This document shows positions 2,519 to 40,000 of a stretch of DNA of 40,000 bases, piece after piece. Both the position numbers and the translations under genes were made by a program. The notes beneath the pieces were generated by a model, which searched no databases, was not told the origin of the DNA, and saw only the letters and a list, made by a program, of their open reading frames with translations. Numbering within the stretch: position 1 is the first letter of the stretch; each line of letters opens with the position of its first letter. The DNA is from an uncultured Prolixibacteraceae bacterium (GTDB taxonomy: Bacteria > Bacteroidota > Bacteroidia > Bacteroidales > Prolixibacteraceae). The stretch is from the NCBI GenBank assembly GCA_963783085.1, contig CAWAMJ010000012.1, positions 100,331-140,330 of the forward strand, written 5' to 3'.

Positions 2519-2714
2519 AATCCAAAAAGTAGAGTTCCTAATACAAAGAACGTGAAAATTGTTAATTTAATCTGAAGTTTCATTTTTTTCGAAAAAATAT
2601 CCCGAAAAAATCCTGCAGGTAAATGATTTAAATCAACTGAAATGTTGACCAATACGGTCGTTTCCAATAGCGTAAGTTTCACAATGAAAGATTGTGAAAA
2701 GACAATTAATTATT

Positions 2715-2722
2715 TACTTTTG
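2715..2722 (+). promoter_or_regulatory. candidate Bacteroidota -7 promoter box (TAnnTTTG) for the nqr operon
   Basis: TACTTTTG lies 33 nt upstream of the nqrA ATG in an AT-rich leader. Confidence 0.35.
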
Positions 2723-2754
2723 CCAACCTAAAATTAATCTATTCTTGATACAAA

Positions 2755-4101
2755 ATGTCAGAGGTTATAAAGTTAAGGAGAGGGCTGAATATAAAGCTTG
2801 CAGGTAGTGCTGAAAAAAAGCTGGACACCCTTCCGGTTCCGGCAACAGTAGCGATAAAACCTACCGATTTCCCGGGTCTCATACCCAAGCTGAGCATCAA
2901 AGAAGGCAGTGAGGTAAAAGCAGGAGATCCTTTATTTTACGACAAATATCATCCCGAAATAATTTTTACTGCCCCGCTGGGTGGAAAAGTGGTTTCGGTT
3001 AACCGCGGCGAACGGCGAAGAATTCTGGAAATAGTGATAGGACCCGATGCCGGTGCAGGATTTGCAGAATTTACAAAAGCCGATCCTTCCGCACTTTCGG
3101 CTGAAGAAATTAAAGAACAGTTATTAAGGAGCGGGACATGGCCTTTTATTAAAAGGCGCCCTTACGGAATTACTGCCTCGCCCGCTGAAAAACCCAAAGC
3201 AATTTTTATTTCCACGTTCGATACCGCACCGCTTGCACCCGATTATAATTTTGTTTTGGAAGGTCAGTTGTCTACGTTTCAGACAGGAGTTAATGCGCTG
3301 GCTAAATTAACCGATGGAAAAGTACATTTGGGAGTAAATGAAAGTTCGTCGTTTACAGAAATCAAAAATGCCGCGATTGAACAGTTCAGCGGCCCTCATC
3401 CAACGGGAAACGTTGGCGTTCAGATTCACCATGTTTCACCGATTGTTAAAGGCGATGTGGTTTGGACGGTAAACGTGCAGGACGTGCTTTTCATCGGCAG
3501 GTTGTTCGAAACCGGAAAAGTTGATTTTTCCAGAATTTATGCGCTCACAGGCTCGGAAGTCGAAAAACCCATGTATGTTAAATCGGTACTTGGCGCCCCC
3601 GTTGCGCCGGTGGTAAAAAACCGCTTGATTAATGTTGACTACAAACAACGCATCATCAGCGGAAATGTTCTTACAGGCGTACAATTGAAAAAAGAAAACT
3701 ACCTGGGCTTTCACGATTCACAGGTAACTGTTATTCCTGAGGGCGATCAGTATGAATTTCTTGGATGGGCTTCGCTGGGCGTTAAAAAATTCAGCGCGTC
3801 AAAAACCTTCCTCTCGTCGCTGCTTCCGGAAAAAGGCTATAAATTAAATGCCAATTTACATGGCGGTGAACGGGCTTTCGTAATGACCAACCAGTACCGG
3901 AAAGTAGTCCCGATGGATATTATGCCGGTAATTTTATTGAAATCGATTCTGGCGAATGATATCGACAAAATGGAGCAACTGGGTATTTACGAAGTGATTG
4001 AAGAAGATTTTGCGCTGTGCGAATATATTTGTGTTTCAAAAATTAAAGTACAGGATATTTTGCGCACCGGCATCAATACCATGATAAAGGAACTTGGATA
4101 A
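2755..4101 (+). CDS. nqrA: Na+-translocating NADH:quinone oxidoreductase subunit A
   Basis: 448 aa, soluble. It is the first of six tightly spaced co-directional genes with the sizes and order of nqrABCDEF. Confidence 0.9.
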   Translation: MSEVIKLRRGLNIKLAGSAEKKLDTLPVPATVAIKPTDFPGLIPKLSIKEGSEVKAGDPLFYDKYHPEIIFTAPLGGKVVSVNRGERRRILEIVIGPDAGAGFAEFTKADPSALSAEEIKEQLLRSGTWPFIKRRPYGITASPAEKPKAIFISTFDTAPLAPDYNFVLEGQLSTFQTGVNALAKLTDGKVHLGVNESSSFTEIKNAAIEQFSGPHPTGNVGVQIHHVSPIVKGDVVWTVNVQDVLFIGRLFETGKVDFSRIYALTGSEVEKPMYVKSVLGAPVAPVVKNRLINVDYKQRIISGNVLTGVQLKKENYLGFHDSQVTVIPEGDQYEFLGWASLGVKKFSASKTFLSSLLPEKGYKLNANLHGGERAFVMTNQYRKVVPMDIMPVILLKSILANDIDKMEQLGIYEVIEEDFALCEYICVSKIKVQDILRTGINTMIKELG

Positions 4102-4162: not shown

Positions 4163-5329
4163 ATGAATTTTATAAAAAACTTTTTTGAAAAAACTGAACC
4201 GTACGTGCAGAAAGGGGCGAAATACCACTGGCTCCGTTCGGTTCACGATGGTTTTTTTACGTTTATGTTTGTACCCAAAAATACATCGAAATCAGGTACA
4301 CACATTCACGACTATATCGACCTGAAACGTACCATGTCAATAGTGGTTCTTGCGCTGGTGCCGGCTATTTTGTTCGGCATGTACAACGTGGGCTACCAAC
4401 ACTTTAAAGCAATCGGAGAATTTGCTTCCACCGGTTTTTCCGAGGTGTTTTTGTATGGCTTTATACGGGTGCTTCCCGTCATTATTGTTTCATATGCAGT
4501 TGGACTGGGTCTCGAATTCGTTTTTGCACAATTTCGGGGACATGATATTAACGAAGGTTTTCTGGTTTCAGGAATGCTCATCCCACTGATAATGCCCATT
4601 GAAACACCGCTGTGGATGATAGCAGTAGCTACGGCTTTTGCTGTTATTTTCGGAAAAGAGGTTTTTGGTGGAACCGGCATGAACATCTGGAATCCGGCAT
4701 TGGTAGCCAGGGCATTTTTATTCTTTGCCTATCCGGCTCAAATGTCAGGAATTTCAGTTTGGGTTTCACTGAATCCCGGCGATAGAGTAGTTGACGCTTT
4801 TACCGGCGCTACACCGATGGCCGACGCAGCAGCAGGAAATATCAACTTCAGCGTTGCCGATGCATTTTTTGGTTTTATCCCAGGTTCCATCGGCGAAACA
4901 TCGACGCTGGCAATTCTGATTGGGGCGGTTATTTTAATCATCACCGGCATTGGAAACTGGAAAATCATGTTGTCCACCCTTTTGGGCGGCCTCTTCATGG
5001 GAATCCTGCTGAACATTTTTGCGGTTAACCCATACATGGCGCTTCCTTTCTGGCAGCACCTCATCATTGGCGGATTTGCTTTCGGCGCTGTATTTATGGC
5101 CACCGACCCGGTTTCGGCAGCCCAAACAGAAAGGGGAAAATGGATTTATGGCTTCCTGATTGGCGTTCTGGCTATTTTAATCCGGGTACTCAACCCTGCC
5201 TACCCGGAAGGAGTTATGCTGGCCATTCTGATTATGAATACATTTGCTCCGCTAATCGACCATTATGTCGTTCAGGGACACATAAAACGCCGGTTGAAAA
5301 GGGCAACAGTGAGCCGAAGGACTGCTTAA
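4163..5329 (+). CDS. nqrB: Na+-translocating NADH:quinone oxidoreductase subunit B
   Basis: Polytopic membrane protein with an FTGATPM flavin-attachment-type motif and a C-terminal MATDPVS region. Position 2 in the operon. Confidence 0.9.
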   Translation: MNFIKNFFEKTEPYVQKGAKYHWLRSVHDGFFTFMFVPKNTSKSGTHIHDYIDLKRTMSIVVLALVPAILFGMYNVGYQHFKAIGEFASTGFSEVFLYGFIRVLPVIIVSYAVGLGLEFVFAQFRGHDINEGFLVSGMLIPLIMPIETPLWMIAVATAFAVIFGKEVFGGTGMNIWNPALVARAFLFFAYPAQMSGISVWVSLNPGDRVVDAFTGATPMADAAAGNINFSVADAFFGFIPGSIGETSTLAILIGAVILIITGIGNWKIMLSTLLGGLFMGILLNIFAVNPYMALPFWQHLIIGGFAFGAVFMATDPVSAAQTERGKWIYGFLIGVLAILIRVLNPAYPEGVMLAILIMNTFAPLIDHYVVQGHIKRRLKRATVSRRTA

Positions 5330-27060: not shown

Positions 27061-27360
27061 TTAGTTTATTGTTAATCCTAATTTTTTTCCTAATCCCTCC
27101 TCGAAAATCTTAAACAGAGTAGAAATCTGAATATCAATTTTTCCATTTTCCAGTCGCGAGATATAACTTTTTTTAGTCCCTGTTTTTTTTGCCAGGTCTT
27201 CTTGGGTGAGATGAGCCTTTTTTCTTTCTTCTTTTATCATTTCTCCAACAATAAAAGCTTTTGCTTTCATTTCAAATTCATCACGTTTTTCTGTTCCTAG
27301 TTTTCCGTATTTGATGTCTAATAATTCATCAAAATTTGTTGCATCTTTTATTGTTTTCAT
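27061..27360 (-). CDS. XRE-family HTH antitoxin (HigA-like)
   Basis: 99 aa with HTH LTQEDLAKKTGTKKSYISRLENGK. A 4-nt ATGA overlap couples it to the upstream toxin gene. Confidence 0.8.
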   Translation of the reverse strand: MKTIKDATNFDELLDIKYGKLGTEKRDEFEMKAKAFIVGEMIKEERKKAHLTQEDLAKKTGTKKSYISRLENGKIDIQISTLFKIFEEGLGKKLGLTIN

Positions 27361-27704
27361 TTTCCTTCTCCTTTTTTGTTTTTGAAATAATCCTCTTTTA
27401 TTTTTAATGCTTTTTCAATTTCTTTCTTTGGTGTTTTCTGACTTTTTTTCTGAAATCCATTGAATAAAACAACAATGCGACCAGCGTCAAAACAACAAAA
27501 TACCCGATAAATGTCAGAACCAACTTTTATCCTTATTTCATAAAGTCCAACCGTACTTTCAACATTTTTTAAGAATTTCTGAGGAATTAAATCCACAGTT
27601 TTAATTACCTTAAAAACATACTCTATTTTTTCTTGTACTGATGAATCAAGTGAAATATAGTAATCAATAAAATAGTTTTTATAAAATTTTATCTCTCGGG
27701 TCAT
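27357..27704 (-). CDS. RelE/ParE-superfamily toxin (HigB/Gp49-like)
   Basis: 115 aa. Toxin-first order with a coupled XRE antitoxin. The LYEIRIKVGSDIYRVFCCFD pattern is typical of the Gp49/HigB group. Confidence 0.7.
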   Translation of the reverse strand: MTREIKFYKNYFIDYYISLDSSVQEKIEYVFKVIKTVDLIPQKFLKNVESTVGLYEIRIKVGSDIYRVFCCFDAGRIVVLFNGFQKKSQKTPKKEIEKALKIKEDYFKNKKGEGK

Positions 27705-27779
27705 TTTGCAAAGTTAACAAGTTTGTAAACATTTCGACGTGCAAAATCAAAATATTATTGAAGATTTTTCTGACTAATG

Positions 27780-27953
27780 TTAAAAATTGTAATTGATGAA
27801 TGAAAGCAGGTTGCTCCTTTGGCAACAATATTTTCGTAGTTTCTCGGTTGTTTCATCGGGTAAAAAGCTGCTTGTCAATAAACCTAAAGCATGTAGTTTA
27901 TGTATATGCCTGCAGTCTGTTACATCAGTCTTTTTCCTTTTTGCATGTAGTTC
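27780..27953 (-). pseudogene. IS110-family transposase fragment
   Basis: KKTDVTDCRHIHKLHALGLLTSSFLPDETTEKLRKYCCQRSNL matches the KTDxxDA...GLLxxxFVP...LRxLxRxR segment of DEDD transposases. Both ends of the gene are missing. Confidence 0.6.
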
Positions 27954-28015
27954 AACACACCCTCTAATGTAAAGCATATGCAAGCAATGCTTTATTAGAG
28001 GCTAGTTGTTAGCAA
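27950..28015 (-). other. short attC-like site (66 nt)
   Basis: Minus strand reads TTGCTAAC-AACTAG-CCTCTAAT(A)AAGCA-loop-TGCTTT(AC)ATTAGAGG-GTGT-GTTGAAC. It has R''/R'-like boxes, unpaired spacers and a bulged stem. It starts 11 nt after the stop at 28027. Confidence 0.55.
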
Positions 28016-28026
28016 TAGTTTTTGAA

Positions 28027-28947
28027 CTATTTTGATTGAAATTTTATATTAAATTTTGCAAGATATTCTGCCAAAGGTTCCAATCCAAGTTCTCTTCTCC
28101 ATGTATCAACTTTTGTTTCATCTTCAAGTGGGTAAAGTTCTTCAGAATTCGTAGACTGATTGAATCTTGTATGTGTACCATATTTCTGCGGTTTATTTTC
28201 GTTAACAAGACAGCGGTCATATATATTGGCATATCTCTGCCAGCTAAGTTCATTTTCTTCACATCGTTGCTTTATTGTCGGTAAATATTTCTTCTGACTT
28301 CCATCATTTGAATGTATAGCTACAAGGTATGCCCCCATTGCTGCTTCACTTCCTACGTCTTTGATTTTAGGCCACCCTTTCAAAACAATAAGTTCTTCAA
28401 GCGCTTTCTGACTATTTTTCTGAATCATAAATTTAGAATTCCATAATGCTTCAACAACAGAAGATTTCATTCCAATTTTTCTACCGGCAATACCTATTTC
28501 TTTAAAATAAGCCTGGTCCAAAGCTCGCAACCTCCAAAGTGATTTTGCATATTCAAGATCTAAATATGGCCTTTTAAATTTTATATTCAGCATTGAAATT
28601 AGGTGGTTTTCAAAGTCTTGCCAATGCCTATCTTCTCTTATTGTTAAAAAATCTGGATCAATTAATGAAGCGATTGACGTATCCATTTCGACTGCAATAT
28701 ATAAGTATTTAAAAGCACTGTCAATTTGCTTATTGATAGAGAGAGCACACGCATAATTATAAACATTAGGTTGATTCTTTGGATTTTGAGAATAAACCTT
28801 CTTATATTCCGCAAGTGCCCCAGGTGTATCTCCCTCATCTCTCAAACTATCAGCCGTACTTCTAATATTTTGAATAACTGGCTGTGAAATAGCAATTTCA
28901 CTAAATACAATGAGACAACCGATTAGTGACAATCTAATAGTATTCAT
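28027..28947 (-). CDS. secreted TPR-like / DUF6624-like protein
   Basis: Signal peptide. The C-terminal pattern LKGWPKIKDVGSEAAMGAYLVAIHS...KYGTHT resembles DUF6624. Weak assignment. Confidence 0.4.
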   Translation of the reverse strand: MNTIRLSLIGCLIVFSEIAISQPVIQNIRSTADSLRDEGDTPGALAEYKKVYSQNPKNQPNVYNYACALSINKQIDSAFKYLYIAVEMDTSIASLIDPDFLTIREDRHWQDFENHLISMLNIKFKRPYLDLEYAKSLWRLRALDQAYFKEIGIAGRKIGMKSSVVEALWNSKFMIQKNSQKALEELIVLKGWPKIKDVGSEAAMGAYLVAIHSNDGSQKKYLPTIKQRCEENELSWQRYANIYDRCLVNENKPQKYGTHTRFNQSTNSEELYPLEDETKVDTWRRELGLEPLAEYLAKFNIKFQSK

Positions 28948-29031
28948 TTTCTATGATGTATTTATTAAAATCATGCGATAACGGTTCAGTAGTCGAGTAG
29001 GCAAAGGGAGTTTCACCCTAAGCCTCTCACA

Positions 29032-29065
29032 GAACCGTGCTTGATAGTCTCCCATCACACGGCTC
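29032..29065 (-). ncRNA. group II intron domain V
   Basis: GAGCCGUGUGAUGGGAGACUAUCAAGCACGGUUC: 34 nt, AGC catalytic triad, 2-nt AA bulge, GAGA (GNRA) tetraloop, fully paired lower and upper stems. Confidence 0.9.
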
Positions 29066-29108
29066 TTGCCTGCCTGGTCGGCAGACAGGTTATACAAATC
29101 TAAACGCT

Positions 29109-30362
29109 TCATTTAAATAAACCAATTTGCCAATGGTAAAATAATGTAGGAAATTGAAACTGCACTTTTTCTAACCATATATAGGCACGGTTTACACTGG
29201 TTTTGTAGCGTTTGTACCTTCTCCTTGCCCAGCGTATTAATCGCTTTCGCAGTAGCTGAAAGATTGGATTCAGTTCGTGTTTCCTGAACTTACCGAAGTA
29301 GTTAACCCACCCTCGTATAAAAGGGTTTAAAAATTGGGCAACGCCTACAATACTTTTGTAAGTCAGTCCAACAATGTCCAATTCCTCCATCTTGTCTGCA
29401 ATACGTTTCTTCGAACTAATACTGATGGCACAATCGTAACCCAAGAACAGTTTCCCTGTCTTTGGCGATTTGGTTGTGCGCGGCTGAAACGAATACCCAA
29501 GAAAATCGAACTTAACGGTCGGATAATTGCTTTGACGTCTATAATCTCGGCAATACACCAGTTTAGTCTTTTCAGGGTGCAATTCCAACCCACAATCAGC
29601 CATACGTCCACGTATTTTTACCAACAACCACTCTGCATGGGCTTTGCTCTTACAGTGAAGTATCGCATCATCTGCGTAACGTTCAAAACTCACTGTTTTG
29701 TGCTTCAGTTCAAGCCATTTGTCCATGGCATAATGAAGAAACAGGTTTGCCAGCAACGGGCTTATCACCCCACCCTGCGGTGTGCCTTTCCCCTGCTTTT
29801 GAACCAGTTCGCCTGATTTCTTTTGCACGGGTGCATTTAACCACCGTTTGATGTAAAATAAACACCAGTTTTCCGAAACATGTTTCTCTACTGCAAGCAT
29901 CAGTTTTCCGTGGTCTATATTATCAAAGAAACCTTTAATGTCGAGGTCGATTACCCAGTCTGTTTTCCTGCAATTATTCCGAACCGATTCGAGTGCCTGA
30001 TGGGCATCCTTGTTCGGACGGTAACCATAGGAGTTTGAACTGAATATCTTTTCAAACCTCGGTTCTAAGTAATCTTTAATAACCATTTGCCCTATCCTGT
30101 CGGCGATGGTTGGAATCCCAAGTTTTCGGGTTTTACCATCTTTCTTGGCTATCTCAACTTCTTTAACAGGTGGCGGAAAATAGCTGCCCGATGCCATGCG
30201 GTTCCAAAGTTTGTACAAGTGTTTTGACCTGTCTGCATCGAATTCTTCCATGCTGATTTCGTCAATGCCTGCACTCCCTTTATTGGCTTTCACTTTCTTG
30301 TAAGCCGCCCATACCATTTCGCGGCTTACAGGTACTGATTTTGTCTCATTCCATAAATTCAT
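29109..30362 (-). CDS. group II intron reverse transcriptase/maturase
   Basis: 417 aa with RT motifs (GIPTIADRIGQ, TPQGGVISPLLANLFL, YADDAILHC) and a maturase X region (RGWVNYFG). No C-terminal HNH/En domain. Confidence 0.92.
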   Translation of the reverse strand: MNLWNETKSVPVSREMVWAAYKKVKANKGSAGIDEISMEEFDADRSKHLYKLWNRMASGSYFPPPVKEVEIAKKDGKTRKLGIPTIADRIGQMVIKDYLEPRFEKIFSSNSYGYRPNKDAHQALESVRNNCRKTDWVIDLDIKGFFDNIDHGKLMLAVEKHVSENWCLFYIKRWLNAPVQKKSGELVQKQGKGTPQGGVISPLLANLFLHYAMDKWLELKHKTVSFERYADDAILHCKSKAHAEWLLVKIRGRMADCGLELHPEKTKLVYCRDYRRQSNYPTVKFDFLGYSFQPRTTKSPKTGKLFLGYDCAISISSKKRIADKMEELDIVGLTYKSIVGVAQFLNPFIRGWVNYFGKFRKHELNPIFQLLRKRLIRWARRRYKRYKTSVNRAYIWLEKVQFQFPTLFYHWQIGLFK

Positions 30363-31063
30363 CCTCTTACCAGAGTTGTTAAATGTTATGATACTGTATA
30401 ACCTAACCCCTTTGCTCCATCTCGATTACCGAGACTTCATCACTACTACGGGTTAGTCCGTCTCCCGACATTTCGTCGGGATTCCCGAGTTCCGTAATTA
30501 AACCTGGATAAAGTTCATGCCGCCTGAATGACGCCAGCCGAATGGATAGTAAACAGGTAACTTCCAAACTTAATGTTGTTTACAACACTATTTTTCACTC
30601 CGTCACATACTTCGTAGCTTTTGACTGGATGTGGCCACTTCTCGACACCTCTTCAGCGGTTACGGTTAGTTCATCTCCTTTATCCATACCTGATAACCTC
30701 GTGGGCTACCTTTTCCTAAACGCTCAATACCATGCCTCTTAAACACAGCACCTTTAGGTGGTTTAAAACCCTTGCCTGTACAACGGTCTTAGTGGGTCGG
30801 TTCCACCATCTTAACTACAGCATGCAAAGAACTAAAACTGCCGATTCTTTGCTTCTCGGCACACCAAGTGGAGTGCGGGATTTTGAAACGGTTTCCTGTC
30901 AAACCTGCACGGAGCCAAGCCGGCTTTTTATTAAACATCATTTTTAAACCGTAATCCGTCAAAGACGGATTGGCGGTGGTTGAACAGGGCGAAAAACGCT
31001 GGAACACCACGCCCGCCCGCATTACATTTGCACTTTGTTATAGCCAGTGTTTTATTCTCTTAT

Positions 31064-31591
31064 TCAATTATCTTCCAGGTAATCAGCATAAAAATCAAAG
31101 TAAACTTGAGTAATATAATCGTGAAATCCCCAACCAATATCACTTGTGTCTGTCATTACTTTTTCGGCTCTGTTTGCAAATTTTTCCAGTAGTCCATTTT
31201 TACTCATCAAAGTCAAAGCTTGTACGTAAGTCTTTTCCAGACTTGAATAAAAACTTTCGTTTATATCTCCAAAATCATTCGTAAATTCAACTCCAGTTTC
31301 CACATAAAAAAGCATTAAGTCAGCAAGATTTTCATCGGATACTCCAAGTTTTTTAAAATCGCTTATAGCTTTCTTCCCTTCTTTCAAATTATAGCCAAAT
31401 CCTCTCTTAGGAAAGAAGGTTTCGAATACTTTCTCACGATATTTTGATAATAGCTCTTTTTCGTTTGGATTTACATAAAAATCAAAGAACTCTTTAACTG
31501 ATTTATTCTTATTATATAATTCACCAATCAAATCAATTAGTTGACTTTTATTCAGATTTTTTAGGTTGTTTTTTACTTCTCGGATTCCCAT
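31064..31591 (-). CDS. hypothetical protein (175 aa, acidic, helical)
   Basis: Clean ORF with an ATG start. It is the last gene of the HicAB-containing block. I recognise no catalytic motif. Confidence 0.6.
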   Translation of the reverse strand: MGIREVKNNLKNLNKSQLIDLIGELYNKNKSVKEFFDFYVNPNEKELLSKYREKVFETFFPKRGFGYNLKEGKKAISDFKKLGVSDENLADLMLFYVETGVEFTNDFGDINESFYSSLEKTYVQALTLMSKNGLLEKFANRAEKVMTDTSDIGWGFHDYITQVYFDFYADYLEDN

Positions 31592-31641
31592 TGTCCTAAT
31601 TATTTCATCATTGGAGTTAACAATTAATATTGCCTGTGTTT

Positions 31642-32040
31642 TTAACTTTTATAAATCAGGTTCATTTCAGATAGTTCTTGTCCAATTTGATGAATTCCAC
31701 TCAATATTTTTTCAGTTTGGTTCTCAGACGGCTTTTTACGTCCTTGTACATATTGGGACAATAACGTTGGATTCATTCCAATTTTTTCTGCAAGAAATTT
31801 TGCATTGAGCACTTTATAATATTGAAAGAATTGCGCAAAGTCAATTTCAAATTTTAAGTTCTCATGCGTAATCTCAAATTCTTCTTCAAAGTTTAATTGA
31901 GTAGCTTCAAGTGCATTATTTATTAATTCAGGAATAGTTCTCCCGGTAGTAAATATTGGATATTCTTCTGAATATGCTGAAAAACCAGTCTTTGTTTTTT
32001 CAACTATTATTTTAATTTTTTTCTTTAATGTTTTCATCAT
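31642..32040 (-). CDS. hicB: HicB-family antitoxin with C-terminal HTH
   Basis: N-terminal IVEKTKTGFSAYSEEYPIFTTGRTIPEL (HicB fold) plus C-terminal FLAEKIGMNPTLLSQYVQGRKKPS (HTH). Lies 8 nt downstream of hicA. Confidence 0.75.
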   Translation of the reverse strand: MMKTLKKKIKIIVEKTKTGFSAYSEEYPIFTTGRTIPELINNALEATQLNFEEEFEITHENLKFEIDFAQFFQYYKVLNAKFLAEKIGMNPTLLSQYVQGRKKPSENQTEKILSGIHQIGQELSEMNLIYKS

Positions 32041-32048
32041 TCTTGTTT

Positions 32049-32237
32049 TTAAATTGTAATTCCTGCATCTCTCAAAATTTTCTTCTCAAGTCCTTTACCG
32101 ACTTCTTGACTTCCATGGTTTGGAAAAATTATTATTCCTTCTTTTTGGTCATGTTTCAATTTAACATGTGACCCTTTTTGAGAAATTGGATACCACCCAT
32201 GTTTTTTCAAGAGTTGGAATAATTCGGAACATTTCAT
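32049..32237 (-). CDS. hicA: HicA-family mRNA interferase toxin
   Basis: 62 aa; LLKKHGWYPISQKGSHVKLKH...IIIFPNHGSQEVGKGLEKKILRDAGI matches the HicA/YcfA pattern. Confidence 0.85.
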   Translation of the reverse strand: MKCSELFQLLKKHGWYPISQKGSHVKLKHDQKEGIIIFPNHGSQEVGKGLEKKILRDAGITI

Positions 32238-32542
32238 TTAAATAAATCTTTCTAAATTGTATTCAAAGGTAAATAATAATTTACTTTTTACAATAAAATA
32301 ATTGCAGGAATTTACTTTTTTTCAACATTGGCTATAACGGTACGTATAAGTTTTGTTGGGGATTCCGAAGCACTTATCTTTCAAAATACAACGAACTTGA
32401 ATAGAAGTAATGCCTTTAAAATTGGCACTTTCACCCCAATAAAATTTATACGATGTTGAACTTAACCTCACTGGCGTTCGGTGGTTTTTAATTCACCGAA
32501 CGTCAGTATCTTTGAGGTATTGTTTCATTTAAAATTCATATT

Positions 32543-33407
32543 ATGACAAATTTAAAAAAAATTCGAACAGGAATCTGTTCTGCGGAACTTAAGTGAAAGG
32601 ACCAGGAAAAGTTACTGGTGGCACATAGTTGACTACAGCAAATTTTGCAAAAAAGACCCTGGGCAAACAGGAGTGCAAGAGCTGAGGGCTTATTTCCAGT
32701 CGATGCTCACCGACGGTAACCACAAACCGGGAAGTGTAAAAATGGGATATTTTGCCCTTCGTTTCCTGTTTACCAACATTTACCACAAAGAATGGGCAAA
32801 ACAATACCTTCCAACGCCAAAAGTTGCCAAAACACTTCCGCTGGTTTTGTCGAAAGACGAAGTAACCGATGTACTTGGGGCCATTGACAACTTCAAGCAC
32901 CGCACCATCATTATGCTTATTTATTCCACCGGGGCCAGGGTATCGGAAAGTGTGAACATCAAACTGACCGATATCGACAGCCGGCGGATGCAGGTCAACA
33001 TCCAGGAAGGGAAAGGTCTGAAGCAACGGAAAGTTCCGCTCTCGCCTGCACTGCTCTCTGTATTGCGAAAATATTACCGGCAGTACAAACCAGGGCATTA
33101 CCTTTTCGAAGGCGCCGGGGGAAAAGGCACACACCTGGGCATTACTGCTGTACGGACTATTTGCACTAATGCACGGCACCGCACGCTACACATTAAAAAG
33201 CCCTACACACCGCACACTTTTCGCCACAGTTTTGCCACACACCACCTCGAACAGGGCACCAGCCTGTTGGTCATACAGCGTTTGTTGGGACATTCCGATT
33301 TAAGCAATACCCTAAAATACCTGCATGTGCAGCAACTCAACACCGGCCAGGTGGTAAACCCGCTGGATACGCTGGAAGGATTGGAGGGGCTATGCAACAT
33401 CAAATAA
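32543..33407 (+). CDS. tyrosine recombinase/integrase of the IS91-type unit; N-terminus out of frame at an A8 run
   Basis: Box I TGARVSE and box II HTFRHSFATH...LLGHS...TLKYLH. ATG 32543 (MTNLKK) is in a different frame from the main ORF. The homologous N-terminal sequence (FEQESVLRNLSERTRKSY...) is open in the main frame only from 32556. Confidence 0.7.
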
Positions 33408-34600
33408 GCCTTGAGAATATCCTGAACGAATATGGCGAAGGCTATATCAGCCGGAACCGGGTTTCAGGACAGGAAAAAGGGTTGGTGCGCCTGTTATCAG
33501 CGTGCCGCACAGCAGGCCTTGGCAGCCATTTTGAAAAATGCGACCATTGCAGCCATACCGAAAAATCCTATAATTCCTGTCGCAACCGCCACTGCCCTGC
33601 GTGCCAGCAAAAAGACAAACTGGAGTGGATGGACAAACGTATGAAAGAACTCCTGCCGGTGGGATATTACCACCTGGTGTTTACCCTGCCTCACGAATTA
33701 AACCTGCTTTGCCTTCAAAATAAAAAGGTGATGTACGGCCTGCTTTTTAAAACTGTATCGCAAACCCTGCTGGAACTTGCCCGCGACCCCAAACACCTGG
33801 GGGCAGATATTGGGTTAATTACTGTCTTGCACACGTGGGGACAAAACATGAAAGAACACCCCCACCTACACTGCATTATGCCGGCAGGCGGGCTCAGCTT
33901 TGACCGTAACCACTGGGTACATATTCCCAATAAAAACAATTTCTTTATTGCCGGGAAAGTGCTGTCCAAAAAGTTCAGGGGCAAGTTTTTGCATCTGCTA
34001 AAGCAGTCGAAGGTAAACGGGGAACTTGTTTTTCACGGAAAACTGGCAGACATAAAAGGGCCGGTGCAGTTTGACCGGTTCCTTACGCCTCTGTACCAAA
34101 AGCAATGGGTAGTGAATGTGCAGAAACCCATGGGCAACCCCGAAAAGATACTGGAATACCTCTCGCGTTATGTGTTCCGCATTGCCATTACCGGCCGGCG
34201 TATCCTGGAAGTGAAAGACGGGAAGGTACTCTTTTCGTGGAAAGACTACCGCACCAACCGTTTCCGCAAAATGTGGCTCGATACCGATGAGTTTATCCGC
34301 CGGTTCCTGTCGCATGTATTGCCAAAGGGGTTCTTTAAGGTGCGGTATTTCGGTATTTTTTCCAGCCGTTACCGGAAACAAAATATTGAAACTGCCCGGA
34401 AGCTCCTGGCTGAAGAGACTGAAACCAAAAAAGAAGAGGCTTTGGAAGATGGCCGCCGGATTTGGGAAAAACAGGATACGGTGTGGAATGAAATCCTTGA
34501 ACTTATTAAAAACCACCGCCAGCCCAACTGCCCGGCATGTAAAAAAGGAAGGTTACGCTTTGCCGGATTGGTAAAGGATGTACCATTGGAACCAGGTTAA
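33392..34600 (+). CDS. IS91-family (HUH, Y2) rolling-circle transposase
   Basis: Zn-binding CDHCSH...SCRNRHCPACQ, then LLPVGYYHLVFTLP, HUH-like HPHLHCIMP, and the tyrosine region LEYLSRYVFRIAI. Confidence 0.88.
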   Translation: MQHQISLENILNEYGEGYISRNRVSGQEKGLVRLLSACRTAGLGSHFEKCDHCSHTEKSYNSCRNRHCPACQQKDKLEWMDKRMKELLPVGYYHLVFTLPHELNLLCLQNKKVMYGLLFKTVSQTLLELARDPKHLGADIGLITVLHTWGQNMKEHPHLHCIMPAGGLSFDRNHWVHIPNKNNFFIAGKVLSKKFRGKFLHLLKQSKVNGELVFHGKLADIKGPVQFDRFLTPLYQKQWVVNVQKPMGNPEKILEYLSRYVFRIAITGRRILEVKDGKVLFSWKDYRTNRFRKMWLDTDEFIRRFLSHVLPKGFFKVRYFGIFSSRYRKQNIETARKLLAEETETKKEEALEDGRRIWEKQDTVWNEILELIKNHRQPNCPACKKGRLRFAGLVKDVPLEPG

Positions 34601-34975
34601 TCACAGGGCAACAAAACGTTCTTTGAACCTTTTTTAAATCCAGGTTAACAGCTAAAAATTCCCTGTTTTGGCTGAACGGGAAAAATATGCAGGCAAACGA
34701 ACAAAAATTTTACCTCAATAACCCGGGTTCACGCCAAACAGGCAAACCGGTAAAAACAACAGATGAAAAATACCGGAAAGAAAACAAGAAAAACATTCAA
34801 TCCCCATAGCCGGAACAATTAATAATCAGCGGCTAAGCCCAACACGAATTAAAACACAATTGGGCTTGGCATTTTGAAAGCAGTTACCCCCGAAAGAAGG
34901 CAGCAGGTTTGCATACTTACTGCCTTTTTTCGGGGCCCAACTGTGCCTTAATTCCTAATTTGTTAGCGATAGTTT

Positions 34976-37606
34976 TTATTGAACAACAATTTTTCTGTTA
35001 AATGTTCTCTTTCCATCAAATAATTTGACCAAATAAACCCCGGCAGGTAATCGCCCCAAATCGAAACTACTGATATCTGCTAAAATGTTATTTTCATAAA
35101 CTTTCTCTCCGTAAGAGTTATAAATGTTTAAAACATAGTTTGTATTCGTATCTTTAAGAAGCTCAATATGCAGGATATCCTTAACTGGATTTGGATAGAT
35201 ACGAATATCGATATTTTGAGAAATGTTTGATGCTATGCCTGTCGTTAAACTATCTACAAGGTAAAAATACCCCGAAGTATCAGCAGCATTGCTATTTAAA
35301 TCTTTAATTAGTATTTGACAGCTATCCTTAGCAGAAATGTATTGAAAAACATCCCAGGTAAATGATTTCTGTTCTGCAGGATAATCATAAGATAAGGTGT
35401 GCCAGTAGTAATTCTTCGATGTTTTATAAGAAATCGAAACATTATTGGCATAGGAGGAAATCCATTTGATTTCGGTACTTCCTTTATAGGAAACTTCTTG
35501 ATTTGGGACAGGACTGACAATTTCTAAATAAGGCAAAATATTTATAACGATAGAATCTGCACTTTCATTTATTTCGCTGTCGTAAACCTTAATCCAATAA
35601 ACTCCCGGTTTTACAACAGGCAGACACCAATTAAAAGAATCTGATTCATCCTCTATATTTTCTATTATTACATTCCAGTTATATTCATTCTGAGGTCTGT
35701 AACTAAGAGTAAATGCGTCAGAATAAAGGTTCTCCCATTTTAAAGTCAAGGTATCACCGGGCATCACTTCGGTGCCCGAAACCGGAGTAATAATTTTAGT
35801 TGATGGAATGAGCGAAATCGATAATGTATCACTTAAACCATACCGGGCATCTGATATCCGGATTAACATTTTAGTTGGCTGAATATCGGGAGTAGTCCAA
35901 CTGAGTTGCTTTTCACTTGCCGTAACCGAATCCTGTACTGTGTTCCATTTTTCTTCACTGGTAATTTTATATTCCAATTTCACGTAATCAATAAATGCCT
36001 CATCCCAAATAACCTGATTTACTTTACCTGCCTGCCATTTTAGACCTTCCATTGCCGGGTTGAATGCCAAATAAGGAACAGCTTCAAATTCCTTCTCTCC
36101 ACTAAATTTAGAACCGGTATAAGCCTGGTCGATTGTTTGTACTGCCCATCTGTAAACTCCGGCAGAATCTAAATGAATTTTCCACCCCTGATTTTTTTGG
36201 ACGTTACCCAAAAATGGCAATCTTAATACCCCGGATGAATGATCGGACATGGAATTCAAAATTGTATCGCCCCCAACCCGGTATAAATAACAATTATAAT
36301 AAAGCCCATCACTTGCAGATTCATTATCCGAACCTTCATTCCAAAACAGATAGACAGTGTTACTATAAACAGAATCCTTTAAAGTTTTTGGGGGATCAGG
36401 CATGGTATTGGATTTGAAACCTTTATTGACATAAACTTCTGTTTCTGCGATTCCAGATCGGTTAAAACCTGTAGAAACGACGTCCAATTTGCCATCATTG
36501 TTGTAATCGAAAAATGCTACGGTGCCTTGGATGTCAGCAAAAGATACTCTTTCCTGTTGAGTAAATTCAGCATTTCCATTATTGTTGAAAAGATAAGTTT
36601 CATAGTATATCTTAAAAATTAAATCAAGGTCTCCATCATTGTCATAGTCACCCCAGTCATGGTGCATAATATTAACGGGCAGACCTGCTATTTTACTTTT
36701 AGTGTAATTGTCATTGCCATCATTCAACAGAATTAGTCCTCCTGAAAAAATATCAACGTCTCCATCGTTATCAAAATCTCCCCATGAGCAATTTCTTTCT
36801 TCACTAAAAACACGATTTGAATAAAGTAGAAAATTACCATCGCCTGTATTTTCATACAATTCTCCTTTAAGCAAAATATCCATGTCATAATCCTTATCAA
36901 AGTCTACGAAAAATACATTCGTATAATAATCCCCCGACATTTCAAAGGAAGATAATTCGTTTAACGATTTGCCTTTATTATTTAGGAACAGGCAGGTTTT
37001 TTCTCCCTGTTCTGAGCTGCCTGAAACAATCAGATCGATATAACCATCATTATTATAATCCCCAAAATCAGCTTTACTGGCAAACATGGCCGTAAAGTTG
37101 GAAATACTATCTTCCTTAAATGTACCATCGCCCAGGTTCTTAAATAACTTCGATTGCTTATCTGATTCATAAGGTGCCTTGGCCCCCGAAATAAACACAT
37201 CCATATCTCCGTCGTTGTCGTAATCGGCCCATTTTATTTCCCCTCTGCTTAACTGAGGAAACACGTCATTATTCACTTCAAGTATATTGCCCGGATTATT
37301 TTGATAAAGCTTGGTGAATGAATAATCATCTTCACCTGACATCAGCATATCCATATCATTGTCATTGTCATAATCAGCCAATCCAATTGAACTGTATTTC
37401 AGTCCGATTAAATCAAGAGTTGTATCTTTTTGCAGGATAAATTCACCATACTGAGTGAATTCAATCAGGTAAGGAGAATTTGCAGCGTATCCTGTAGTTA
37501 AACGAATACGACCATTTCGTAACGCACCTCCATTCTTACTGAAATGAAGGATAATATTCGTACTGTCTCCTCCGGTTTCCGTGCTTACAGTATACCAATC
37601 ATCCAT
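34976..37606 (-). CDS. FG-GAP/VCBS-repeat protein with T9SS C-terminal sorting domain (3' part of a split gene)
   Basis: Many DYDNDGDMD-type repeats. The C-terminal IYPNPVKDILHIEL...GVYLVKLFDGKRTFNRKIVVQ is a type-A T9SS sorting domain. The frame stays open upstream of the listed Met to about 37888. Confidence 0.8.
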   Translation of the reverse strand: MDDWYTVSTETGGDSTNIILHFSKNGGALRNGRIRLTTGYAANSPYLIEFTQYGEFILQKDTTLDLIGLKYSSIGLADYDNDNDMDMLMSGEDDYSFTKLYQNNPGNILEVNNDVFPQLSRGEIKWADYDNDGDMDVFISGAKAPYESDKQSKLFKNLGDGTFKEDSISNFTAMFASKADFGDYNNDGYIDLIVSGSSEQGEKTCLFLNNKGKSLNELSSFEMSGDYYTNVFFVDFDKDYDMDILLKGELYENTGDGNFLLYSNRVFSEERNCSWGDFDNDGDVDIFSGGLILLNDGNDNYTKSKIAGLPVNIMHHDWGDYDNDGDLDLIFKIYYETYLFNNNGNAEFTQQERVSFADIQGTVAFFDYNNDGKLDVVSTGFNRSGIAETEVYVNKGFKSNTMPDPPKTLKDSVYSNTVYLFWNEGSDNESASDGLYYNCYLYRVGGDTILNSMSDHSSGVLRLPFLGNVQKNQGWKIHLDSAGVYRWAVQTIDQAYTGSKFSGEKEFEAVPYLAFNPAMEGLKWQAGKVNQVIWDEAFIDYVKLEYKITSEEKWNTVQDSVTASEKQLSWTTPDIQPTKMLIRISDARYGLSDTLSISLIPSTKIITPVSGTEVMPGDTLTLKWENLYSDAFTLSYRPQNEYNWNVIIENIEDESDSFNWCLPVVKPGVYWIKVYDSEINESADSIVINILPYLEIVSPVPNQEVSYKGSTEIKWISSYANNVSISYKTSKNYYWHTLSYDYPAEQKSFTWDVFQYISAKDSCQILIKDLNSNAADTSGYFYLVDSLTTGIASNISQNIDIRIYPNPVKDILHIELLKDTNTNYVLNIYNSYGEKVYENNILADISSFDLGRLPAGVYLVKLFDGKRTFNRKIVVQ

Positions 37607-37826
37607 GGCTTTTATTTCCGTAAGGTTCAGAAGACCCTTCCCGTTATTCTTAATCGTGAAGGTAAAACTTTCGTTATCCGTTGAAATTTCTGCAGGTTTT
37701 GGATAATGACTAATGATAGGAACTGAATCTCCTATATAAAATGAATGTACTTCGGAATAGGAAGAAGCGAGAAATCCATTGTCAACAGTTTTTACCTTCC
37801 AGTAATAATACCCCGGCTCCAGATTT

Positions 37827-39185
37827 TTAACCAGCAGGCAAGTGTCTTTTATATTGCGCCCAAGCTGATATGAGGCCGGGGAAACAAATTAAATTATCGT
37901 GTCCCCTTTTCAGTTCCAGTACATATCCCAACCCTTTTTCAGGTGTTTCAGCGTCATTGCCAGGCGACCAGTGCAATAATACACTGGTTGAGTCTGTATT
38001 AGCGCTCAGACTTTGAGGTTGTTCGGGGCTGGTGTTGCTTTTGGTAGTATTGTTCAGGTATATTTTAGTGACCCGATCACGATACCCTGAACTTAAAAGG
38101 TTTCCTTCCCCTGTAACAATAATATCTAAATCATGGTCATTATCAATATCTCCAAATTTGATTACGCCCCCTTCAACACCCTGAATATTTTCACCTGTTT
38201 CTTCAGTAAAACTAACACCACCATTATTTTTATAAAGCGTGGTCTCTATATCATTGATGCCTACACCCGTAACCATAAAATCCAGCCAACCGTCATTGTT
38301 GAAGTCTCCTAAATCGATGGCAGCACTCCCTAAACGGTATCCACTTACAATTGGTTGTTCGTCGAACTTTAAATTATTGTTTCTGTATATCGTTACAAAG
38401 TTTTGGTCCGTGCCACATAAAAAAATATCTAAATAGCCGTCATTGTCATAGTCCCCCCATTTAGCCATGCCATATCTTAAATTTTTCAGTGAACTTGAGG
38501 TGTCGGCTACGAAAACATTATTTCCCTGATTAATGTAAATTTTTGAAAATCCATAATCAGGCCATCCGTTGTCACCTGTAACAAGCAAATCTAAATCTCC
38601 ATCTTTATCAAAGTCTCCCCAATCTGCGGATCCATTTGTCAGCGATGGAACAGATGTCTCTATTCTGCAGAAGTTATTTCTGCCATTGCTTTCATATAAG
38701 CCAGCCGTGGTGCTAAAGAGGTCAATATCCCCATCATTATCATAATCGCCAATTTCAAAGCTGGTAAACTCAGCATAATTAAATGACATATAATTTTGCA
38801 CTTCAAATTCTCCATTACCATTATTTTTACTAAAATTTGGAAAAGGAAAAACAGTAGAGTTAGTCCTACCATCCATAACCAGATCTAAGTCTCCATCATT
38901 ATCATAATCGAGAAAATCGATTTTCCCGAATTCAAATGCCGGCAGGTTGGTATTTATAGTATCCTTCTCAAATACATTATTTCCTTTGTTAAGATAGATA
39001 ACAGTTGTTGTTAAACCATCTCCTGAAATCAAAATATCCAGTAAGCCATCATTATTGATATCTCCCAGCGAGCAACAGCTATATTTAACCTGTGCCAGTC
39101 CGGCATTCTCCAATTCCGTATATATTTGCGCCATTATATAGCTAGGTGCAAATAACAGTACGATTATTACTAATGTTTTATACAT
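37827..39185 (-). CDS. FG-GAP/VCBS-repeat protein with signal peptide (5' part of the same split gene)
   Basis: Signal peptide MYKTLVIIVLLFAPSYIMAQ, FG-GAP repeats (GDINNDGLLD, DYDNDGDLD...). It ends in an out-of-frame tail after ...GHDNLI. Confidence 0.8.
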   Translation of the reverse strand: MYKTLVIIVLLFAPSYIMAQIYTELENAGLAQVKYSCCSLGDINNDGLLDILISGDGLTTTVIYLNKGNNVFEKDTINTNLPAFEFGKIDFLDYDNDGDLDLVMDGRTNSTVFPFPNFSKNNGNGEFEVQNYMSFNYAEFTSFEIGDYDNDGDIDLFSTTAGLYESNGRNNFCRIETSVPSLTNGSADWGDFDKDGDLDLLVTGDNGWPDYGFSKIYINQGNNVFVADTSSSLKNLRYGMAKWGDYDNDGYLDIFLCGTDQNFVTIYRNNNLKFDEQPIVSGYRLGSAAIDLGDFNNDGWLDFMVTGVGINDIETTLYKNNGGVSFTEETGENIQGVEGGVIKFGDIDNDHDLDIIVTGEGNLLSSGYRDRVTKIYLNNTTKSNTSPEQPQSLSANTDSTSVLLHWSPGNDAETPEKGLGYVLELKRGHDNLICFPGLISAWAQYKRHLPAG

Positions 39186-39198
39186 GTTTTTTAAATTA

Positions 39199-39389
39199 TT
39201 GCTAACGGTTTGGCTATGTGGAGTGCGGGACTTTGAAACGCTTCACGGTCAGGCTGCCACTGAGCCAATTCGTTTATTCAAATTTTGTTTTTATAGCCAA
39301 ATCGTCAAAGACGAATTGGCGGTGTTGCAACGAAGCACAGCTGTTTGATTACGCACTGCACCCCGCATTACATATAGCTTTTGTTGTGC
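39199..39389 (-). other. large attC-like structured element (191 nt), uninterrupted copy
   Basis: R''-like GCACAAC (39389-39383) lies 13 nt after the stop at 39403. R'-like ACC-GTTAGCAA (39206-39199) lies 13 nt before the ATG at 39185. It shares conserved blocks with 30865-31045: ATGTAATGCGGG, CACCGCCAAT-CGTCTTTGACG, CGTTTCAAA-TCCCGCACTCCAC. Confidence 0.6.
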
Positions 39390-39402: not shown

Positions 39403-40000
39403 TTATTTTACAGCATCAATCAATATTTGTGTCTTTGAGCCTTGTTTTACATGCTGCTTATCTTCTAGGTCAAAATCAGCTCCGTCCATGGCATTTGTAG
39501 CTTGTTGAAATAATGGTAAATATCTTGCTTCATCATTTAAAATATCAATTATTGGTTCACAGAATCTATTCATCAAACGTTCACTATTGAATGGAGGATT
39601 ATCTTGGGCGCTTACTAATATTCTGAACATGGTTAATAAATGAAACCTAACACGTTTGTATTTGGAGTCTATAATTCTTCTTCTGAAAAGAGATTCAAGT
39701 CTATAATATGCAAGGGCACTCGTATAGTAAGGAATAAAAGCATGGTCCTCATTGAAAATTTGTGAAGAATCAGAATTCAACCTTTTTACAATAGAACCAA
39801 AATAACTTGTGACCAAATGGGGATTTTGGAGAAACATTGCTGAAAAGGATTTAATCTGAATAGGAATACTGATTATACGAGTCTTAGTCACAGAACTATC
39901 AGTATTATATTGTTTTGACCTTCTTTCGTAATAAAGTGCTCCATCTCCATCAAAAGACTTATAATATTGCTCCAATCTCCTTTGGAAATCAGTAAGTGCA
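39403..40000 (-). CDS. AIPR-like abortive-infection protein, C-terminal part (5' end outside window)
   Basis: The frame is open to the window edge (...ALTDFQRRLEQYYKSF). LYYERRSKQY...RIISIPIQIKSFSAMFLQNPH resembles the AIPR C-terminal region. Assignment is from memory. Confidence 0.5.
   Translation of the reverse strand, partial: ALTDFQRRLEQYYKSFDGDGALYYERRSKQYNTDSSVTKTRIISIPIQIKSFSAMFLQNPHLVTSYFGSIVKRLNSDSSQIFNEDHAFIPYYTSALAYYRLESLFRRRIIDSKYKRVRFHLLTMFRILVSAQDNPPFNSERLMNRFCEPIIDILNDEARYLPLFQQATNAMDGADFDLEDKQHVKQGSKTQILIDAVK

Follow-up and report, generated by a model that had tools for sequence, protein, structure and literature searches.

Integron biology centres on folded attC hairpins and on an integrase whose extra domain reads extrahelical bases. 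Integron cassettes are bounded at G|TT of the R' box, and the first bases of a cassette pair with the R'' box of its own attC, the next one downstream. Integrons of the Treponema/Spirochaetota type show an 'inverted' integrase orientation and have a bona fide IntI with the additional domain, and Xer sites are double-stranded, dif-like sequences of about 28 bp, with Xer systems building no ordered cassette arrays with circular-cassette complementarity. The stretch analysed here, a window of 40,000 nucleotides on contig CAWAMJ010000012.1 (assembly GCA_963783085.1, positions 100,331 to 140,330) from an uncultured Prolixibacteraceae bacterium, carries two homologous structured elements, referred to as sites A and B, which are very probably attC-type recombination sites of integron-like gene cassettes.

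The additional domain of IntI around patch III is treated as defining integrons (PMC9668308; PMC8138268), and IntegronFinder 2.0 reports one complete integron in Bacteroidetes, in Salinibacter, where earlier only In0 elements had been recorded (PMC9024848). IntegronFinder surveys require the IntI domain and report almost no integrons in Bacteroidetes. The sites described here act as attCs by comparative tests, yet adjoin a recombinase without this domain across an order of marine Bacteroidota. The searched literature, which is incomplete, contained nothing specific on integrons in Marinilabiliales or on integrases lacking the additional domain; the kind of element is a known one, the integron attC, and the form found here is a new variant in that the same incomplete literature holds no description of it.

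Sites A and B and the family of arrays

Genes and sites of the window are read on the minus strand unless given as plus, and the letters A to G denote sequence types of the elements. Site A, of type A, spans 39204..39385 (nhmmer E=1e-57), opening with R'' AAC at 39385-39383 and continuing through an A-rich spacer, L'' GCTAT (39378-39374), the inner stem TGCGGG/CCCGCA enclosing a conserved centre of about 125 nt, L' ATAGC (39217-39213) and the spacer CAAACC to R' GTT at 39206-39204, with the putative crossover between 39206 and 39205. Site B, of type B, extends from 31039 to 28980 and is broken by a 1873-nt group II intron. Its 5' part (30865..31039, nhmmer E=3e-51) includes R'' AAC at 31039-31037 and L'' GTGCAA at 31033-31028 and ends at the intron insertion point CACTTG^, and its 3' part (28980..28991) comprises the TAC of L', the spacer TGAACC and R' GTT at 28982-28980. 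Joining 30865 to 28991 rebuilds the element.

The first-pass annotation had proposed two homologous structured elements sharing three blocks, and both are real, each about 185 nt long and on the minus strand. Each block occurs exactly twice in the window: the 23-mer, 22-mer and 12-mer lie at 39240-39218, 39324-39303 and 39373-39362 in A, and at 30890-30868, 30978-30957 and 31027-31016 in B, with the two long blocks giving no match in 100 dinucleotide-preserving shuffles. Alignment of A and B shows 79% identity over about 200 columns, with divergent stretches between the blocks, as the annotation had described. Its structural observations were reproduced as well: the outer helix differs in sequence and pairs in both copies (GCTAT/ATAGC in A; GTGCAA/TTG^TAC in B, including one G.T), the inner helix TGCGGG/CCCGCA is identical, and the central hairpin carries a compensatory change from T:A to C:G. 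Uninterrupted relatives of B have a perfect TTGCAC in the outer helix instead of TTG^TAC. The sharp stops in homology between A and B, at a 5' AAC (39385-39383; 31039-31037) and a 3' GTT (39206-39204; 28982-28980), mark these motifs as the true boundaries of the element.

Far from being unique to this window, A and B represent two widespread sequence types. The collection of homologues that the annotation had called for yielded a family of arrays with covariation support. An exact scan of one genome per species with the 23-nt 3' block returned 42 loci, mostly in Prolixibacteraceae and relatives (Draconibacterium, Mariniphaga, Sunxiuqinia, Prolixibacter, Mangrovibacterium, Marinifilum), with a few in Zobellia, a Cyclobacteriaceae metagenome-assembled genome (MAG) and a Cloacimonadota MAG. 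Related loci number 49 in all, in Prolixibacteraceae and other Marinilabiliales, and are cited below by L numbers. Type A is recognised by ..AAAAGCTATATGTAATGCGGGG....CACATAGCCAAACCGTT and type B by ..AAAGTGCAAATGTAATGCGGGCGGGC....CACTTGCACCAACCGTT, and the conserved blocks of the centre are ATGTAATGCGGG and CGTTTCAAARTCCCGCACTCCAC. In an alignment of 39 copies, similarity breaks off at the 5' end with an invariant AAC and at the 3' end with CCGTT, all copies differing beyond; such sharp AAC and GTT ends are hallmarks of the inverse-core R'' and core R' of integron attC sites.

Searching with an nhmmer profile of types A and B gave weaker matches at both ends only, and these, reused as queries, led to further types. 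Altogether, 100 elements with both ends located by nhmmer fall into types A to G, measuring 120-195 nt and sharing a common end architecture. From AAC to GTT, types A and B measure about 182-186 nt, types C, D, E and G about 122-130 nt, and type F about 170 nt. The layout common to all types consists of YAAC, an A-rich spacer, a 6-nt L'', a TGCGGG-like segment and its TTCRAAATCCCGC-like counterpart, L', CAACC and GTT. In the related loci, elements follow nearly every gene and all lie on one strand, with none of the 42 loci carrying elements on both strands. Arrays are dense, with seven elements in 8 kb in L039 and in L033, seven in L043, eleven in 9 kb in L044 and five in L047. The element was not found in plasmid and phage collections, consistent with sedentary chromosomal arrays.

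Some copies are altered. L009 (4409-4607) and L020 (7182-7382) hold 5'-truncated type-B elements of which about 90 nt of the 3' side remain; in L009 the upstream half is swapped for unrelated sequence resembling the end of a transposase gene, and the sequence upstream in L020 is likewise unrelated. In L042, two different attCs (about 3240-3260 and 4650-4665, minus strand) are each followed at R' by GTTGAACCGTTGAACCGTTG, three tandem copies of GAACCGTT, which may be the footprint of repeated recombination or an element end.

Fold, covariation and cassette boundaries

For the covariation analysis, the two arms of 45 distinct elements from all types were aligned and a hand-drawn structure was counted, comprising the R box, the L box, two inner pairs and the GC stem. 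Standard pairs occupied 89% of cells, against 31-41% when the 3' partners were slid by one to three columns, and double-sided changes occurred in 14 of 17 pairs; no column shuffle among 500 reached any observed measure. The L-box helix is particularly well defined, its eight pairs being paired in 93% of cells with compensatory changes at every pair. Next to it lies an unpaired spacer, AAA(A) opposite CAA(A)CC, and further irregularities include a conserved A.C mismatch adjoining the L box and a bulged base in the GC stem of type C. AAC and GTT are invariant in all 45 elements, and nearly all have Y before AAC and R after GTT. The bottom strand is predicted to be slightly more stable in 52 of 73 elements, with a mean difference of -1.9 kcal/mol.

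The centre is treated more cautiously. The hairpin CCAATYCGTC-TTT-GACGR is present in types A and B, and a rival long-range helix, GCCAATYCG with CGRMTTGGC, shows the same T:A to C:G change. Running RNAalifold on types A and B separately produced different and unconvincing folds for this large region, and the structure claimed for it is limited to the hairpin and the competing long-range helix.

The signature of cassettes is most apparent in the flanks. In 43 of 58 neighbouring pairs, and in 43 of the 51 pairs lying within 2.5 kb, the tail after GTT is reverse-complementary to the R'' flank of the next element over at least 8 nt, typically 9-10; random pairs from different loci match in 2.0% of cases, and an element's own tail matches its own R'' in 4 of 100. 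The match often resumes past a single mismatch at position 11, giving an R box of about 13 bp with a fixed C.A on the top strand and G.T on the bottom strand.

Shared cassettes place the breakpoint at the same position. L012 and L039 share a 630-bp cassette at 98.9% identity, its homology starting at ..C|GTTACCTGCAATTTT in both; in L012 it stands after an attI-like, non-attC sequence just 3' of the recombinase gene, and in L039 after a type-C element deep in the array. A second cassette is preceded by a type-E element in L006 and by one of type B in L028, and its homology starts at |GTT. On these comparisons, whole cassettes move together and the breakpoint falls at G|TT. Cargo across the family includes defence and toxin-antitoxin-type genes, namely AIPR, HigB/HigA-like, AbiE and GIY-YIG.

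The reading of these elements as autonomous small repeats of the miniature inverted-repeat transposable element (MITE) or repetitive extragenic palindromic (REP) kind, or as transposon ends, inserting at a palindromic AAC|GTT, would account for their multi-copy, dispersed occurrence, for their terminal AAC...GTT symmetry and for the presence of several insertion sequence (IS) families at these sites. It is nevertheless extremely improbable, because an element's own flanks are complementary only in the 4 of 100 cases given above and the 3' flank complements the next 5' flank in the 43 of 58, a pattern that fits cassette circles and not target duplication or a palindromic target. The single orientation per locus, the placement of one element after nearly every gene, and the travelling of homologous cassettes together with their element also argue against it.

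A role as structured RNAs, such as 5'- or 3'-untranslated-region regulators, terminator or insulator hairpins or small RNAs, with the intergenic position being incidental, draws on the fact that the elements lie between genes on the coding strand and show strong structure and covariation, and that their centre sequence is conserved across genera within each type, a feature for which a pure hairpin recombination site would have no use. The comparison with Rfam that the annotation had suggested left the element in none of the families: at gathering and relaxed thresholds (E up to 10, 300-nt slice) it was unmatched, with a best E=2.2, and only the group II intron passed. The ends are DNA recombination junctions, the flanks complement the far end of the next cassette, for which there is no RNA reason, and the flanking genes are functionally unrelated. 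In the R box, the conserved mismatch reads C.A on the transcribed strand, as against G.T on the opposite one, and the bottom strand folds slightly better, leaving an RNA function very unlikely. According to the annotation, selection acts on a folded single strand, which could be DNA, as in attC, or RNA; the DNA option is strongly supported by arrays, flank complementarity, G|TT breakpoints and covariation, and the RNA option is unsupported, given the missing Rfam match and the junction-type ends. It had also said that its reading would fall if the element proved to be the terminal repeat of a known mobile element, and what emerged comes close to that in spirit, a site that is very probably of the integron cassette type, thereby bearing out the annotation's own attC guess.

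Comparison across the loci demonstrates the array organisation, the circular-cassette complementarity, the G|TT breakpoints and the covariation of the stem, and a mechanism can be outlined for the attC reading. Each site follows the gene or genes of its cassette, and its single-stranded DNA form would fold into a long imperfect hairpin. From the outside in, this hairpin would consist of the R box (..YAAC with GTTR..), the unpaired spacer (AAAA opposite CAAACC), a 5-6-bp L box that varies among types and is always paired, a partly mismatched segment, the GC-rich stem TGCGGG/CCCGCA and the large type-conserved centre. A tyrosine recombinase would cut and exchange strands at G|TT of R', and cassettes of the form TTnnnnnn..gene..attC..G could leave the array as circles and integrate into an attI-like site or another attC. 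We infer that the bottom strand is the main substrate.

Recombinase and attI-like region at array heads

Eight array heads are visible in relatives. In five of them (L012, L025, L043, L044 and L047), a gene for a Xer-like tyrosine recombinase of 360-380 amino acids lies directly upstream of the detected elements in the orientation of the cassettes. That gene layout recurs at the other three (L046, L048 and L049), with first open reading frames (ORFs) lacking a detected element; L046 has two weak matches only, and in L049 an IS3-type pair follows straight after the recombinase. At the five heads with detected elements, the recombinase stop is followed by a region of about 100 nt (330 nt in L012) with direct and inverted repeats, for example ATAACATTAC in three copies, ending in ..GCACAYWM|GTT, after which the array begins. 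At the two heads where the boundary match was examined, L012 and L025, the start of the first cassette matches the R'' flank of the first detected attC. In L030 (3401-3614), an inverted type-B attC lies with its R' end 18 nt from the stop of an array-type recombinase (..ACAAAACAAC|GGTTAGTGCAAG..), perhaps because this stretch was inverted or because the element entered the attI-like site in reverse orientation.

The array recombinase comprises a SAM-like and a catalytic domain, preceded by about 95 N-terminal residues without a Pfam match, a part predicted to form a small alpha/beta domain. Alignment with VchIntIA (PDB 2a3v) falls into two pieces, with 27 residues standing where VchIntIA has 69; the array recombinase is therefore without the IntI additional domain. 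Scores on the integron-integrase model TIGR02249 are 185-210 bits against a cut-off of 265, and on the XerA/'integron integrase' model L025 and L012 are just above the cut-off, with L030 at 192 against a cut-off of 220. The closest solved folds are XerA, then IntI. Across the 49 loci, no tyrosine recombinase besides the array type was found except those linked to IS91. From this synteny, we infer that the array-adjacent recombinase is the catalyst.

The attCs could also belong to an ordinary integron, in which a canonical IntI, additional domain included, acts on them from another place in the genome and the Xer-like recombinase is unrelated or a mere neighbour. The site architecture and cassette logic are exactly integron-like, the start of the window array lies outside the window, and Bacteroidota are named among integron-bearing phyla in reviews (PMC8618304). 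Against this stand the recombinase without additional domain and the attI-like ..|GTT directly upstream in five of eight array starts, with the same gene layout but no adjoining element in L046, L048 and L049; the finding of only IS91-linked tyrosine recombinases otherwise in the 49 loci; and the essential lack of complete integrons in Bacteroidetes proper in IntegronFinder surveys (PMC9024848). An ordinary integron is, on this balance, unlikely. A distinct, undescribed class of chromosomal integron in Marinilabiliales, and sporadically in other Bacteroidota, using a Xer/XerA-like integrase without the additional domain and with a novel N-terminal domain, and long attCs of few types that are maybe recombined at both R' and R'', is put forward tentatively, as a reading with a real chance of being correct.

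The window array and its place among known systems

Besides A and B, the window holds at least three more sites (34964-34841, 32457-32336 and 28010-27954), and it is read, from sequence comparison, as the middle of an array extending at least over 28.0-39.4 kb on the minus strand. The third attC-like site, E-like in type and 122 nt long, spans 32336..32457 (nhmmer E=2e-4), and its tail GTTATAGCCA is exactly reverse-complementary to TGGCTATAAC, the R'' flank of site B (10/10), a match that defines a cassette between 32335 and 31040. This cassette (31040..32335) contains an ORF with a weak helix-turn-helix (HTH) match (31642-32040) and a DUF6155 ORF (31064-31591), followed by site B. The candidate site X (34841..34964) stands after a gene with FG-GAP repeats and a type IX secretion system (T9SS) sorting domain; its support is weaker, the L008 array providing a relative for its 3' arm only. 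The tail GTTAGCAATAAT of site A differs from the R'' flanks of X (CTATCGCTAAC) and Y by one or two mismatches, and because the flank of X nearly matches, X is taken to close a 4.3-kb cassette at 39203-34965. Within this cassette (34965..39203) lie two FG-GAP repeat genes, at 37827-39185 and 34976-37606, the latter with the T9SS sorting domain.

Site Y, a short attC-like hairpin at 27954..28010, follows the ORF 28027-28947 and has a homologue in the L008 array (E=2e-10), from which it differs by compensatory changes, CCTCTAAT/ATTAGAGG versus CCTCCAAT/ATTGGAGG. The corresponding cassette (28011..28979) encodes a TPR/DUF6624 protein in that ORF. At 27061-27704 lies a pair consisting of a HigB-like (Gp49) toxin and an HTH antitoxin, cargo typical of integron arrays, and at 39403-39975 a 190-amino-acid ORF matches only the C-terminal half of the AIPR abortive-infection family, which may represent a truncated defence gene. 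With genes transcribed from the minus strand, the head of the array is expected past position 40000; exact gene records for three window proteins, sought to extend the window toward the array start, were not found. A generic AAC...stem...GTT scan of the window returned about 57-60 matches per strand against 17-45 in shuffles, and it was rejected as a site finder for being too noisy, serving for coordinates only.

Mobile elements occupy the sites themselves. The intron splitting site B is a complete group II intron of 1873 nt (28992..30864; RF01999 102 bits, RF00029 65 bits), with a reverse transcriptase/maturase ORF at 29109-30362 (TIGR04416, 407 bits) lacking an endonuclease domain. It lies in the top strand of site B in the same orientation as the cassette genes, and introns in L023 and L029 are likewise in the top strand and co-oriented with the genes, inserted after ..TTG or ..TTA near L'/R'. 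The group II introns of L005 (about 4470-4946), L010 (about 2547-3010) and L035 (upstream of 1781) are on the strand opposite the cassettes, their 5' end adjoining ..TTTGT^ (then T) inside R'' on the bottom strand, so both strands of the sites are intron targets. Group IIC-attC introns target TTGT/T in the attC bottom strand, opposite to cassette transcription (PMC7923331), and the L005, L010 and L035 introns resemble them in target, strand and orientation. Unlike these, the window, L023 and L029 introns are top-strand and gene-co-oriented and form a different lineage; a comparison of exon- and intron-binding sites (EBS1/IBS1 covariation) between the window and L023 introns gave no clear site, and IIC class is therefore not established for the window intron.

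An IS91-family unit occupies 32458..34840 on the plus strand, between site X and the E-like site, adjoining the R'' GTTCAAC of the latter. It encodes a tyrosine recombinase of 283 amino acids (32556-33404, plus) and a transposase (33392-34600, plus; NF033538, 412 bits). This recombinase is a paralogue of the array recombinase (E=1e-44), and it was rejected as the array integrase, being a partner ORF of the IS91 transposase, lacking the N-terminal domain and sitting inside the array. In L008 (from about 6729 onward), L024 and L028, the IS91 end (..hairpin..GGTTTAGTTCAAC) adjoins R'' of type A and B elements, which points to a lineage of IS91 elements that targets attCs. IS1182-like elements with the end TCAGACTGTCTAAAAACC are located exactly at CCG|TT of R', the presumed crossover, in L001 (minus), L009 (minus), L027 (plus) and L037 (minus, twice), and a MITE-like derivative of about 120 nt with the same end TCAGACTGTCTAAAAACC occupies the same position.

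Relatives of IS110 (IS1111-attC) are attC-targeting elements. Directly downstream of site Y, at 27705-27945, lies a transposase gene remnant similar to L001 172-318, which we take to be IS110-family-like from a motif of the ..KKTDVKDC..LHALGLL.. type. By these matches, the window array is colonised by a group II intron, an IS91-family unit and an IS110-like remnant.

Several points weigh against the attC reading. The evidence is comparative throughout, with recombination not directly observed. The centres are conserved within each type across genera far beyond what a hairpin needs, unlike a 'variable' terminal structure, and the elements are longer than typical attCs (57-141 bp). The R''/R' consensus amounts to YAAC/GTTR only, the other positions being free, so that the full 7-mer RYYYAAC/GTTRRRY is fitted partly. 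Between L032 (1000-1090, minus) and L044 (16757-16847, plus), and between L029 (1290-1380) and L039 (6950-7040), an identical ORF end and R'' flank, 41 of 41 nt in the first pair, is joined to different attC bodies with a break at AAC|. Such breakpoints are not predicted by the canonical single-crossover model, and they suggest exchange at R'' too, perhaps via the top strand. In the window, high-confidence family members account for two of the five sites (A and B), the tail of site B has no matching R'' flank downstream, and no array-type integrase was found, the IS91-associated paralogue alone being present. A canonical IntI elsewhere in these genomes is a possible server of the sites.

Should the array recombinase be the catalyst, cassette arrays would be commoner than current tools show, the requirement for the additional domain would not be universal, and the origin of integrons from Xer-like ancestors would become open to experiment. 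A distinct class, if true, would amount to hairpin-based cassette capture without the IntI domain, either evolved twice or older than the domain. The conserved 23-mer combined with the boundary rule provides a simple way to find and delimit cassettes, many of them with defence and toxin-antitoxin genes.

Compared with the attCs of sedentary chromosomal integrons, such as the Vibrio cholerae repeats (VCRs), the sites share a location at the 3' ends of cassettes that lack promoters and are arrayed in a single direction, the R''..AAC/GTT..R' ends, the unpaired spacer, the L box, the imperfect hairpin with a terminal structure and the crossover at G|TT. They are further alike in that the first bases of a cassette complement its own R'', in homogeneity within each type and in defence and toxin-antitoxin cargo. 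They differ in their length of 120-195 nt, against 57-141 for most attCs, in an R box of about 13 bp with a fixed mismatch, in having R'' breakpoints too, in sequence types that recur across genera and even classes, in their Bacteroidota (Marinilabiliales) host and in a neighbouring recombinase without the IntI additional domain. Integrons of the Treponema/Spirochaetota type similarly have a recombinase gene that is co-oriented with the cassettes and an insertion site lying past the 3' end of that gene, whereas the recombinase here lacks the additional domain and has an extra N-terminal domain. Among Xer systems (XerC/D and archaeal XerA, with dif/pdif modules and integrative mobile elements exploiting Xer, IMEXs), the recombinase is nearest to XerA and XerD in sequence and fold, but the sites on which it would act are hairpins of 120-195 nt standing in ordered cassette arrays.

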